Shown here in pieces: positions 11,480 to 15,188 of a stretch of 64,000 bases of DNA. This stretch comes from an uncultured Phycisphaerales bacterium (GTDB taxonomy: Bacteria; Planctomycetota; Phycisphaerae; Tepidisphaerales; Tepidisphaeraceae): NCBI GenBank assembly GCA_963704405.1, contig OY969903.1, positions 2,948,909 to 3,012,908 on the forward strand, in the 5' to 3' direction. The stretch's first letter is position 1; every line of letters begins with the position of its first letter. The notes beneath the pieces are model-generated. The model was not told the origin of the DNA. It saw nothing but the letters and a program-made list of their open reading frames with translations, and did no database searches. The position numbers and the translations under genes are program-made.

Positions 11480-12310
11480 TCAGTCATCGCTGGGAAGAAG
11501 GATGCTGTCGGTGGCGTCGGCGGGGCTGAGTTCCACGTTAGGGGTTACACCGTTTTTAGCCGTGTAGATGTTGTCTTGCTGAACGCCGCAGAGCGGGGTG
11601 ATTTGCCACGCGACATGACCGTCGCCATACAGGACGTTTTGGCCATCGCGTTCGTGGTTGGCGCTGTTCGCCTTTTGCATGACTGACGTGGGACTGTTTG
11701 GTCTGGCGGCGTAGACGTCGCTCTTTTTGGTGGTTGCATCCACACCAGGATTAAGGTCGGCGGCAATCGCAAATTCGGCAGAGAGTTTGTTGCAGAGGCG
11801 ATAGCCGGCAGCGCTGGCAGTGGTGTTGCCGTAGGGATTGGCAAAGCTGTAGCCAAGGTTTTTCTTATAATTGGTGAAGTTGGAGCGGCCGGCGATGGGA
11901 GCCGTGTCGGCACTGAAATCAGTTTCGTCGTTATAGGGGCAGATGAATACTTCGGGCGTAACCCTTTGGGATTTTAAAACCAAAAAAAGAGGAGCCGTGA
12001 GGTCGTTATAGCCGACGCCCCCCTGAAACGGGTCGGCGGCCATGATGCCGGTGCCTTTGGTCAGACCGGTTGGGAGGACTTTAGTGTACGTTTCGTCGGC
12101 AAGGGTGCGGGGATAGTTGCCGTGATTGTCGGATTCGTAGGTCGCGATCGCAAGGCCGATCTGGCGTAAGTTGCTGGCGCACTTGTCGATATAGGCCTGA
12201 TGACGGACGCGTTCGGCCGCCGGCAGGAGGATGGCCATCAGCACACCGATGATGCCAATGACGACGAGGACCTCAATGACGGTAAACGCATTTGGGCGGC
12301 GATTTCGCAT
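11480..12310 (-). CDS. DUF1559 / H-X9-DG prepilin-like protein
   Basis: N-terminal type IV pilin-like motif AFTVIEVLVVIGIIGVLMAILLPA. C-terminal HxxxGxNVLYGDGHV (H-X9-DG), typical of the expanded Planctomycetes family. Confidence 0.9.
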   Translation of the reverse strand: MRNRRPNAFTVIEVLVVIGIIGVLMAILLPAAERVRHQAYIDKCASNLRQIGLAIATYESDNHGNYPRTLADETYTKVLPTGLTKGTGIMAADPFQGGVGYNDLTAPLFLVLKSQRVTPEVFICPYNDETDFSADTAPIAGRSNFTNYKKNLGYSFANPYGNTTASAAGYRLCNKLSAEFAIAADLNPGVDATTKKSDVYAARPNSPTSVMQKANSANHERDGQNVLYGDGHVAWQITPLCGVQQDNIYTAKNGVTPNVELSPADATDSILLPSDD

Positions 12311-12467
12311 ATTTCAAAGGGACTATAACAAGTGAAGCTGACCGGAAGATGAGGGGAATGTTAAGACCCCGCGGTTCCAATAATATCTCAACCCATAGCG
12401 CCAGATGTGCCGAAATAAGGAATAAGGCGCGAGCCGGAATGCTCCCCTTCTTACCGAGAGAATGCCA

Positions 12468-13248
12468 ATGGATCTGGCGAGTATATTTGGAATGCTTCTG
12501 GCCTGGGGTGCTGTGCTGTTCTCAATGTGGCACGTCACCGAAGGCAACATGGGCGGCGTACTTCAAACCGCCGGAACTATTCCTGGTCTTCGGAGGATCG
12601 CTGGGGGCGGCGATGCTTTCCATGCCGCTGCATAACATCACCGGCGCTGTCGGTTATGTGAAAAAGTGGCTGTTCAACAAGCATTCGCACATTGAGCACA
12701 TCATCACGGAGATGGTGCAGTATGCAGAGACGGCTCGCCGCGACGGTGTGCTGGCGCTGGAGACAGTCGCGCGGGAAGCGCCCGATGCATTTCTGCGGCG
12801 CGGATTGCAGTTGACAATCGACGGGACCGATCCGGAAATCATCGAGCGCATTCTTCGAATTGAAATCGACGCCATGGTGGAACGCCACAAGCATGGCAAG
12901 CACCTGTTCCACACACTGGCAAAGTTCGGTCCGGGCTTTGGCCTGATGGCAACACTGATCGCACAGGTCGCAATGTTCCGCAGCCTCGGCGGCGATTCCG
13001 GTGCGATCGGACAGGCACTGGCAGTCGCGCTCACCGGAACGCTCTACGGCTGCATGTTGCAGAATCTTGTCGCCGGCCCGATCGCCGAAAAACTTTCGCT
13101 CCGATCCCAGGAAGAAGCCTTCGGCAAGGAAATCATGCTGCAGGGAATATTAAGCATCCAGGCAGGCAACAATCCCCGCGTAGTGGAAATGCAGTTGCTG
13201 AGCTTCCTGAGCAACAAGCAGCAGGAAGCCATGCCAAAGGCAGCGTAG
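12468..13248 (+). CDS. motA: flagellar stator protein MotA (MotA/TolQ/ExbB family), frame broken near 12551-12558
   Basis: ATG 12468 encodes MDLASIFGMLLAWGAVLFSMWHVTEGNMG (typical MotA TM1). It continues only after a 1-nt shift in a G/C run into ..YFKPPELFLVFGGSLGAAMLSMPL.. of ORF 12292..13248. The extension upstream of 12468 in that ORF looks non-coding. Confidence 0.85.
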
Positions 13249-13256
13249 AAGCATTT

Positions 13257-13284
13257 ACCGCAGAGACGCGGAGGCGCGGAGAAG
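13257..13284. repeat. left arm of 28-nt inverted repeat bracketing the GxxExxY gene
   Basis: accgcagagacgcggaggcgcggagaag versus the reverse complement of 13673..13700 (accgcagaggcgcggagacgctgagaag): 25/28 matches. Confidence 0.85.
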
Positions 13285-13287
13285 ACA

Positions 13288-13671
13288 ATGCAAGTTAATG
13301 AGCTCACCGATGCCATCATCTCTGCCGCAATCGAAGTGCATCGGGCGCTGGGGCCGGGACTTCTGGAATCTGTGTATCAACAGTGCCTGTGCCATGAGTT
13401 GCAGCTTCGAAACATTCCGTTTGAATTCCAGATGCGGCTTCCAGTTCACTACAAAAATGTGAAGCTCGATTGTGGGTATGTCGTTGATGTGCTCGTAGCA
13501 GGCATAGTTGTCGTGGAATTGAAATCAGTCGACAAGATTCACCCCATCCACGAGGCACAACTGCTTACTTATCTTCGCCTTGGCGGGTGGCAGGTTGGAT
13601 TACTCATTAACTTCAATGTGTCTTTGCTCAAAGACGGTATTCGCCGCCGAGTGCTTGGTCTAAAGGAATAA
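13288..13671 (+). CDS. GxxExxY protein (PD-(D/E)xK-like, PDDEXK_3-type)
   Basis: 127 aa. IISAAIEVHRALGPGLLESVYQQCL (GxxExxY motif), DVLVAG.IVVELKSV, HEAQLLTYLRL. Confidence 0.9.
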   Translation: MQVNELTDAIISAAIEVHRALGPGLLESVYQQCLCHELQLRNIPFEFQMRLPVHYKNVKLDCGYVVDVLVAGIVVVELKSVDKIHPIHEAQLLTYLRLGGWQVGLLINFNVSLLKDGIRRRVLGLKE

Positions 13672-13672
13672 T

Positions 13673-13700
13673 CTTCTCAGCGTCTCCGCGCCTCTGCGGT
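13673..13700. repeat. right arm of 28-nt inverted repeat bracketing the GxxExxY gene
   Basis: cttctcagcgtctccgcgcctctgcggt, complementary to 13257..13284 (25/28). Confidence 0.85.
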
Positions 13701-13709
13701 GAAAATATC

Positions 13710-14537
13710 ATGGCCAAAAAAGCCCCCCCCTGCCGTTGCAAGCCTCAGGAATGTGAAGAATGCCCCGAGTGGATCTTCACGTTCGCCGATCTGGTCATGC
13801 TGATGATGGGGTTCTTCGTGATCCTCTGGGTGTTGAAGCCTTCGCCAAATCCCAAGTCGGGCGGGGGGAATACAAACCAGGAATGGGTGAATACCGCGGC
13901 GGCGATTCGGGATGCATTTGGATATGTGCCTAACCCGGCCAGCACCGATCCGGTGGATGAGCAGATGATCTTTCAAAAACTGAACGGGCTGAAAGTCCCG
14001 GATGGACCAGGCAAGGGCGGCGAAACCAAGATTCATCGCCAGGGAGCGGATGGGACAGATCCTGAAGTAACGACGATTCGCGTCGGGAAGCAGGCCGTGG
14101 TTGGGGGACGGCTGCTGTTTGAGAAAAAGGACTTCAAATTGGTGCCGGGAACGCTGCGCATGGTAGATGAAATCGCAGCGCAGATTCGAGGACATCGCAA
14201 TATTGTGCTGGTAAAAGGACACACTTCACTGGACGATTTCGGTGACGAAGCGACGGCCGAGCAGAAAATGGATCTTTCGCTTCGGCGGGCGCAGTCCGTC
14301 GCCGACTACCTGACCGCACATGGCGTTTCGCCCGATATTTTGCGGGTGCAGGGGTGCTCCACCTTTGAACCTGTCATGCAGCGGGAATATACCCTGGATT
14401 CACAGGTGGTAAATCGGCGGGTGGAAGTGGAAGTCACCCCCACCCTGGTAACCGATCTGCAACAGAGTCCCAAGCCCTCAACTTCAGCGCCCGTTGAAGC
14501 ATCCGGACCGGTGCCGGTGCCGGCCACATTACCATAA
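13710..14537 (+). CDS. motB: flagellar stator protein MotB (OmpA-like C-terminal domain)
   Basis: N-terminal TM with conserved Asp (WIFTFADLVMLMMGFFVILWVL). C-terminal OmpA/MotB-like peptidoglycan-binding region (VLVKGHTS..LSLRRAQSVADYL..RVQGCS..P). Confidence 0.88.
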   Translation: MAKKAPPCRCKPQECEECPEWIFTFADLVMLMMGFFVILWVLKPSPNPKSGGGNTNQEWVNTAAAIRDAFGYVPNPASTDPVDEQMIFQKLNGLKVPDGPGKGGETKIHRQGADGTDPEVTTIRVGKQAVVGGRLLFEKKDFKLVPGTLRMVDEIAAQIRGHRNIVLVKGHTSLDDFGDEATAEQKMDLSLRRAQSVADYLTAHGVSPDILRVQGCSTFEPVMQREYTLDSQVVNRRVEVEVTPTLVTDLQQSPKPSTSAPVEASGPVPVPATLP

Positions 14538-15188
14538 GTCGCAGCACCTTCACCTCACCTTAACTTCAGTGTTGGCGACACCCTGTCGTCAAAAACGGAC
14601 ACCCTGTCTGCACGGATGGGCCTGCTAAAATACGCGGCGGTGCCCGTAGGTTTTTCTTAGCGCGATATTTTTCTTCATTAAATCCGAGAAATTCCCCATC
14701 TCTCCTACACCTCAGTCCGTCATCCCTCTGGCCTGGTGTGGTCGATTCGTTCATAGGCACACTTTTTGCTCAGTGCTTCACGGTAGACCAGAACGCCAAA
14801 TTAAAGCGAAGCATAAAAGCTGAGGTTGCGCTATGAAGCAAAATTCCAAAAGTGAAGCGGTGGACGCGCGGAAGAAGGCCGCCGAAAAGGTGAGTCTGAG
14901 CGCTGCGTCTGTCTGGAATACGCCTCTTGCGCCTTCACACCGGCCAGCTTCTCCCGCTCCGGCAGTCTGGACACGCTACATCGATAGCCGCCTGAAGCAA
15001 TTTAGCGCCCGTTAGTTGCGGCAATAACAATCGCGGCTGGGTCTCGTCCCATTCGGTAAGGGCACCGAAGTCGTTCCGGTTGAATCCACTTTAACCGGCT
15101 CCTTCGCCCGCCAAAGGTTTGAACAATCTGAAGACCAAACACCGCCCGTGAAATATGCGGGCTTAAAAGGAAGGATGAGCGTACGCGC

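Follow-up and report, generated by a model that had tools for sequence, protein, structure and literature searches.

On balance, the 450 bp at positions 13254–13703 of the window, the whole 64,000-nucleotide stretch of DNA from an uncultured Phycisphaerales bacterium that was analysed, are probably an old resident copy of a widespread, horizontally moving cassette in which a nuclease gene is combined with flanking repeats, whose short units are read by the cassette's own nuclease. This cassette separates the two stator genes motA and motB. On the forward strand, motA (stator protein A; 12467..13248, with the stop codon TAG at 13246–13248) is recognized by MotP/PomA/MotA models (E 1e-56) and by PF01618 from 12571 on, and motB (stator protein B; 13710..14537, with its ATG at 13710) by PF13677 (MotB_plug), PF00691 (OmpA) and MotB family models. 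Between them, the GxxExxY gene (13288..13671, 127 aa) is transcribed in the same direction and enclosed by a left arm (13254..13285) and a right arm (13672..13703), which a repeat finder reports as inverted repeats of 32 nt, 386 nt apart and complementary at 28/32 positions (88%). The preliminary description of this DNA had placed 28-nt inverted repeats around the ORF, starting 8 nt after the motA stop and ending 9 nt before the motB ATG. That core (13257–13284 and 13673–13700) sits within the 32-nt arms, and both offsets agree with the positions of the two codons; a feature beyond that description is that each arm constitutes an array of three 7-nt units with a period of 8 nt. Between the two 38–39-nt spacers that join motA to the ORF and the ORF to motB, the highest score of an ungapped inverted repeat is 20, a value found in 0 of 5000 shuffles of these spacers (maximum 11), and when the same geometry was applied to 20,000 random places of the genome, a single one scored 14 or more. 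Therefore, the complementarity of the arms is beyond chance. The upstream gene shows a peculiarity of its own, since motA as assembled contains one extra base near 12553–12560 (ATGGGCGGCGTACTTC here versus ATGGGGGCGTACTTC in relatives). Thus, the first 30 residues of MotA (12467–12556), which match the N-termini of the MotA proteins of relatives, lie in another frame than the remainder, and the extra base represents either a pseudogene or an assembly error.

The protein encoded in the cassette matches TIGR04256 with 151 bits (cut-off 35; profile positions 1–115 of 116) and PF13366 (PDDEXK_3) with 148 bits (cut-off 22), with no other Pfam match and, in particular, no Pfam or NCBIfam match to a GIY-YIG domain. 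Its motif reads G24-L-L-E27-S-V-Y30. The residues E27, Y30, D67, E77, K79, Q91 and Y95 are invariant or near-invariant in two alignments, D67 and K79 being invariant in both, and E77 in one of them, with near-invariance in the other. This corresponds to the D...ExK...QxxxY pattern of RecB-like nucleases, where Q91 and Y95 form the QxxxY part. In an AlphaFold2 model with a mean pLDDT of 95, the nearest folds retrieved by Foldseek are Cas4 SSO0001 (4ic1), LHK-Exo (3syy), lambda exonuclease and RecE, all of them weak matches (E 3e-3 to 6e-2, TM 0.45–0.54), and a sequence-profile search of the PDB returned no solved structure at E up to 1. The GxxExxY protein is, thus, a predicted minimal nuclease of the RecB/Cas4-like PD-(D/E)XK type. 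We know of no activity established for GxxExxY proteins. In the 2012 survey of PD-(D/E)XK proteins, the PF13366 family was entered as "unknown, multiple transfers".

The two arms of the window follow a simple design, namely TTYAC followed by three CGCNGAG units at 8-nt spacing. From the outside inwards, the left arm consists of TTTAC (13254–13258) and the units CGCAGAG (13259–13265), CGCGGAG (13267–13273) and CGCGGAG (13275–13281). The right arm shows the complements CTCAGCG (13676–13682), CTCCGCG (13684–13690) and CTCTGCG (13692–13698) and closes with the outer end GTGAA (13699–13703), so that, read outside-in, its units are CGCAGAG, CGCGGAG and CGCTGAG. A common grammar holds over the cassettes compared, in which an outer end T(T)CAC or AAC is followed by three units of the form C-R-Y-N-R-A-K, with a unit period of 8 nt in 76 cases and 9 nt in 119. 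The genome of the window contains four full GxxExxY genes and three fragments, and arms alike in design and different in sequence are present at all four full copies and at one fragment, with the unit variants CGCNGAG, CRCRGAT (period 9), CGCRAAG, CGCAGATT and AACGCCAAGG. The preliminary description had pointed to the other paralogues as the place to look for similar repeats, and comparable inverted repeats indeed accompany every full gene. The same holds for 21 of the 24 GxxExxY copies in seven related genomes of the same family and for about 68 of 80 homologues in other phyla (protein identity 52–72%), including Chloroflexota, Acidobacteriota, Bacteroidota, Thermodesulfobacteriota and Verrucomicrobiota. 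Unit types and protein clades go together, a pattern that shared descent alone would also produce. The end motif TTCACC/GGTGAA was considered as a native target site and ruled out, because it is a conserved cassette end around homologues in many phyla. As a separate observation, three loci (L064, L074 and L094, at about 1570–1680) present the layout arm–ORF–arm–loop–arm, with a forward arm copy after the ORF, a short loop and a reverse arm, as if the gene adjoined a complete gene-less hairpin.

The limits of homology between distant copies define the extent of the element. Among 5.8 billion proteins, no homologue comes closer to the protein of the window than 76% identity; a search at E 1e-30 yielded more than 5,400 matches, none of them above this value, and an exact-sequence look-up returned no match. 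Therefore, the copy in the window has not been mobile recently. One of the 76% identical proteins belongs to a type II secretion operon in a different genome (L135), and the alignment of both loci reveals homology from ACCGCAGAG to CTGCGGTGAAA, that is, from one arm end to the other, between unrelated flanks. At third codon positions, the two ORFs are only 34% identical and, thus, saturated, whereas the non-coding arms retain about 90% identity and differ at unit position 4 and in the spacers. Likewise, the cassettes of L064/074/089/094, L066/069 and L101/104 share 83–87% DNA identity in unrelated contexts of different orders or phyla; their homology does not extend beyond the cassette, and on the left the alignment stops at the outer arm end. 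Judged from these alignments, inheritance and transfer concern the entire cassette, and its arms are conserved far above synonymous sites. Inspection by eye of eight motA–motB copies revealed no target-site duplication. As regards the proposal of a small mobile cassette in the preliminary description, the discrete unit ending at the arms is thus borne out, while mobility itself is read from comparison and not from observed movement, and the cassette appears mobile in this sense.

The comparison of the motA–motB site in 29 relatives, all belonging to different genera, provides a record of its history. The gap measures 0–45 nt outside the family and 4–45 nt within it when empty, and other relatives bear cassettes or leftover arm ends, in agreement with the earlier claim of a discrete cassette in an otherwise short gap. 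Three of these relatives (L014, L016 and L022) carry a GxxExxY cassette with the same arm type at the same point, which is also occupied by GxxExxY cassettes in two further GTDB genomes (L052 and L081) and four metagenome contigs (L132–134 and L137). Two others (L002 and L019) have a gene for a PF05635 "23S rRNA intervening sequence protein" in the gap, between arms composed of other 7-mers with a period of 7, and four (L015, L018, L020 and L023) contain gene-less hairpins of tandem 7-mers. In the tree of MotA and MotB, the GxxExxY carriers are scattered and 4 changes are needed, and the sister of the window genome (support 99) has a PF05635 cassette in the gap instead. The arm-end hexamers TTCACC, CACCGC, GCGGTG or GGTGAA are found in 5/13 unoccupied gaps, amounting to 10 matches versus 0.69 expected and 0 in the reversed control. 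Precise excision of the cassette would leave a scar like GGTTCACC..GGTGAACC; the gap of L005 reads GGTTCACCACAAAGTCTCTGCGGTGAACC, which equals two cassette ends joined. Moreover, L137 contains a second tandem copy between its GxxExxY cassette and motB (L137:2391-2633), where both arms and the first few codons persist and the gene has been lost; it illustrates directly what a gene-less derivative looks like. Most of the proteins closest to that of the window are encoded at syntenic positions, and the GxxExxY protein tree of 102 sequences is poorly resolved, with 8 starred branches. Given the syntenic homologues, the site shared among relatives and the joined or leftover arm ends, the favoured history is that of an old insertion that would have been inherited, repeatedly deleted leaving its arm ends, and sometimes replaced by cassettes of the second type, although insertion may also have occurred repeatedly at the same point. 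A further structure of this gap is found at L015:1182-1486 (in motA-to-motB orientation), where gene-less arms of GGTAGTT arrays surround a separate pair of perfect 27-nt palindromes (CGTTTAGCGGCCCCGCTTGCGGGGCGT).

Arrays of the same units are dispersed in the genome, mostly apart from any gene. The window's genome contains 43 three-unit CRCNGAG arrays, most of them gene-less, and each of the unit classes GAG, GAT and AAG of its paralogues has gene-less hairpin counterparts. In relatives, 0–410 such arrays are found, as compared with 0–17 per strand for a control pattern. Arrays exceed GxxExxY genes 10- to 100-fold, and the numbers of both are correlated over 41 genomes (Spearman 0.42, p 0.006). 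One relative (G018, 93% complete) contains 99 three-unit CRCNGAG arrays and lacks a GxxExxY gene at E 1e-10. Two abundant gene-less families with CGCNGAG arrays in the window's genome bear further outer inverted repeats of their own, and something else may move them. The first is a MITE-like palindromic family of ~165 nt with the outer ends AAGCTCCTAACA...TGTTAGGAGCTCT and an inner hairpin in which arms of three CGCNGAG units enclose a loop of 47 nt. It comprises about 10 near-identical copies (G000:C1 591326, 871064, 1188463, 1297815, 2908255, 3983751, 4025614, 4157234, 4764843 and 4770856), and this near-identity indicates a recent spread within the genome. The second MITE-like family, of about 170–190 nt, occupies about 22 sites (for example G000:C1 342969, 507535, 565549, 1057012, 1230945, 2335765 and 4409844), has the terminal inverted repeats GGGTGTAACGCTCGATTGTGGCGG.../...CCGCCACAAACGGGAGTTACACCC and encloses one ACGCGGAGGCGCTGAGACGCAGAG array together with a degenerate partner.

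The second cassette type is also represented in this genome. Its sole PF05635 (23S IVS protein/Avd-like) gene (C1:4399212-4399532, minus strand) lies between two type IV pilus/secretion ATPase-like genes and is flanked by inverted GTCCGTT/GTCAGTG arrays with a period of 7. Gene-less tandem 7-mer hairpins of GTCCGTT/GTCAGTT, which share the unit of this cassette, number about 50 genome-wide, and at G000:C1:1335337-1350549 GTCCGTT hairpins occupy nearly every intercistronic gap of a ribosomal protein operon, around rplW, rplB, rpsC, rplP, rpsQ, rplN and rpoA. Pairs of GTCCGTT arrays 388–1454 nt apart were examined as candidates for further cassettes and rejected, since they turned out to be gene-less hairpins next to each other, on either side of ribosomal protein genes. 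With arm periods of 8–9 nt around GxxExxY genes and of 7 nt around PF05635 genes, there are, therefore, two families with two repeat grammars.

What is preserved in the arms was assessed in 69 cassettes, for each of which the right arm was reverse-complemented and compared with the left one. Arm-versus-arm mismatches amount to 13/1008 (1.3%) at the six core positions of the units, 28/168 (17%) at unit position 4 and 76/199 (38%) in the 1–2-nt spacers, and the difference between core and spacers is highly significant (Fisher p 7e-52). Furthermore, unit position 2 differs in 34% of the comparisons between cassettes and in 5.5% of those among the roughly six units within a cassette, and unit position 5 in 47% and 3.2%, respectively, so that the units inside one arm are copies of each other. 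Since pairing demands neither a conservation limited to the core nor like units within one arm, a stem selected for pairing alone is not indicated. The units are better understood as targets of a sequence-specific reader, given that within any cassette all six adhere to the variant of that cassette while the spacers drift. The arms would, in this sense, be arrays of recognition sites, with a variant peculiar to each cassette.

From these observations, a mechanism can be outlined. The cassette would consist of a PD-(D/E)XK nuclease gene of ~125 aa and two inverted arrays, each with an outer end TTCAC/AAC and three units spaced by 8–9 nt. If the units are recognition sites of a sequence-specific reader, the most economical candidate is the cassette's own nuclease, and it is probably this protein that reads them. 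By analogy with the dependence of REP sequences on RAYT proteins or the association of NTS/SRM repeats with Ssn nucleases, gene-less arrays may be derivatives that depend on the cassette nuclease. Against a simple dependence of the arrays on the gene stand the arrays of G018, a genome that lacks the gene, the families with extra outer repeats, and the want of any close relative of the window copy, which has therefore not moved recently. A more far-reaching version of this scheme, which we put forward only tentatively and consider rather doubtful in its entirety, is that GxxExxY cassettes are undescribed minimal selfish elements whose nuclease, as the sole factor, would read its own 7-nt units (three per arm, perhaps one for each subunit of an oligomer), cut the arms and thereby cause the cassette and its far commoner gene-less hairpin derivatives to be excised, inserted or copied into intercistronic gaps; the PF05635 (Avd-like) cassettes would operate a parallel period-7 system, and the motA–motB gap of Tepidisphaeraceae would document in nature how such elements are gained and lost, how they replace each other and how they decay.

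The position of the cassette within an operon has to be considered in weighing what else the arms could be. A scan found no promoter-like or terminator-like site within the cassette. Among callable cases, GxxExxY genes have the same direction as their upstream neighbour in 33 cases and the opposite one in 3, and the corresponding numbers downstream are 24 and 7; all motA–motB copies are co-directional with the stator genes. Moreover, the last unit of the left arm provides GGAG 6 nt before the ATG of the GxxExxY gene. For these reasons, the gene likely lacks a promoter of its own and is co-transcribed with the stator genes. The preliminary description suggested that the arms can pair in the mRNA, and a thermodynamic model reproduces this pairing with a probability of about 1 and a duplex energy of -55 kcal/mol; the RNA stem is physically plausible on this model and may well affect the expression of motB (or motA). 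One rival explanation is that the arms are kept as an RNA stem, a processing or stabilising site of the RNase III type that uncouples motA from motB and frees the nuclease mRNA, as in the intervening sequences of 23S rRNA. The predicted pairing, the co-directional, intercistronic position without promoter or terminator, the PF05635 genes within hairpin arms at the same site in sister genomes and the similar gene-less hairpins in the gaps of the ribosomal protein operon all speak for it. However, arm mismatches are concentrated in the spacers and almost absent from unit cores, the units within one arm resemble each other in a way that pairing does not require, and G.U-type mismatches on the sense strand (50) do not significantly outnumber those of the A.C type (37). 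In addition, the same arm design is found at copies that are not co-directional with their neighbours, and no rRNA or Rfam match was obtained for 12000–15000 at E up to 1. We, thus, consider this explanation unlikely, and the earlier suggestion of a stem maintained for RNase III is not supported as the main point. The pairing of the arms in RNA would be a physical consequence of their inverted arrangement and not what selection preserves.

Another explanation assigns the unit arrays to a host protein, such as a nucleoid or regulatory factor, in which case the GxxExxY gene would be a passenger in hairpin loops and the arrays would spread or persist for reasons of the host. The 99 arrays of G018, the 10- to 100-fold excess of arrays over genes and the presence of arrays inside two MITE-like families with other outer ends would fit such a factor. 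Nevertheless, the unit variants specific to each cassette travel with the gene across phyla, so that a host factor would be required to change in parallel in each recipient, and GxxExxY and PF05635 cassettes differ in their grammar (period 8–9 versus period 7). This renders a host reader improbable. Finally, the inverted repeat could have been made locally, by duplication in the motA–motB gap around a horizontally acquired gene, and be a functionless look-alike of a cassette, but this proposal, consistent as it is with the lack of a target-site duplication and of a recent copy, is hardly credible, since the arms are about 90% identical between the window and L135, whose ORFs are saturated at synonymous sites, and since homologues in many phyla are surrounded by the same ends and units.

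Understood as a nuclease-plus-repeat cassette, the locus of the window adds to current knowledge a range of states observed at a single orthologous site, limits of homology that coincide exactly with the arm ends, and the opposition of saturated synonymous sites to conserved arms. The cassette family is very large, extends over many bacterial phyla and has apparently not been described in print; the literature on GxxExxY and PF13366, as covered by a full-text search, does not treat flanking repeats. The conservation pattern of the arms offers a concrete substrate candidate for the PF13366 protein, namely three phased 7-nt units in a variant specific to the cassette. If the protein reads its own units, the family would represent many small nucleases with different short specificities. 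Moreover, the cassette reading would account for a large class of repeat hairpins that lie between cistrons in Planctomycetota and other phyla; these hairpins probably shape the mRNA structure of operons, including those of the flagellar stator and of ribosomal proteins.

Several known systems share part of this organization. In REP/RAYT systems, a small single gene is located between inverted short repeats, and many gene-less copies of the repeat, often as hairpin doublets, occupy intergenic and intercistronic gaps; RAYT proteins are HUH/Y1 transposases (IS200/IS605-like) with few copies per genome, and each variant is associated with its own repeat variant. The cassette of the window resembles these systems (REPtron or REPIN-RAYT) in that the gene is flanked by an inverted repeat that is also dispersed without it. 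However, its protein is of the RecB/Cas4-like PD-(D/E)XK type, with matches to PF13366 only and not to an HUH/Y1 transposase, and its arms are phased arrays of three 7-nt units, whereas REPs are single imperfect palindromes. The intervening sequences of 23S rRNA with PF05635 ORFs, as in Leptospira and Coxiella, are excised by RNase III. They are similar to the cassette in their ORF of roughly 120 aa, which is enclosed by arms whose complementarity gives rise to a long stem in the transcript, and they are linked to it by the PF05635 cassettes that hold the same motA–motB gap in two related genomes (L002 and L019), but the ORF of the window belongs to PF13366 and not to PF05635, and the host transcript is the motA–motB mRNA instead of rRNA. 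Discrete ends, terminal inverted repeats and gene-less derivatives are shared with MITEs and insertion sequences with multi-site ends, from which the cassette differs in having no recognised transposase and, at the motA–motB copies examined, no target-site duplication. The Ssn proteins are widespread small GIY-YIG single-strand nucleases that recognise a flanking hairpin-forming repeat present in hundreds of copies per genome, and 42% of the homologues are flanked on both sides by this NTS/SRM repeat (PMC11893778). Both systems combine a small nuclease family with a repeat on either side of the gene, recognition being presumed for GxxExxY by inference; in contrast, the fold of the window's protein is PD-(D/E)XK and not GIY-YIG, the Ssn repeat is a single hairpin motif and not a phased array, and Ssn nucleases have been described as modulating transformation (PMC11893778) and not as a mobile cassette. 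Therefore, the cassette resembles REP/RAYT, Ssn and 23S intervening sequences in layout and is a member of none of them, since its enzyme fold differs and its arms are phased arrays instead of single palindromes.
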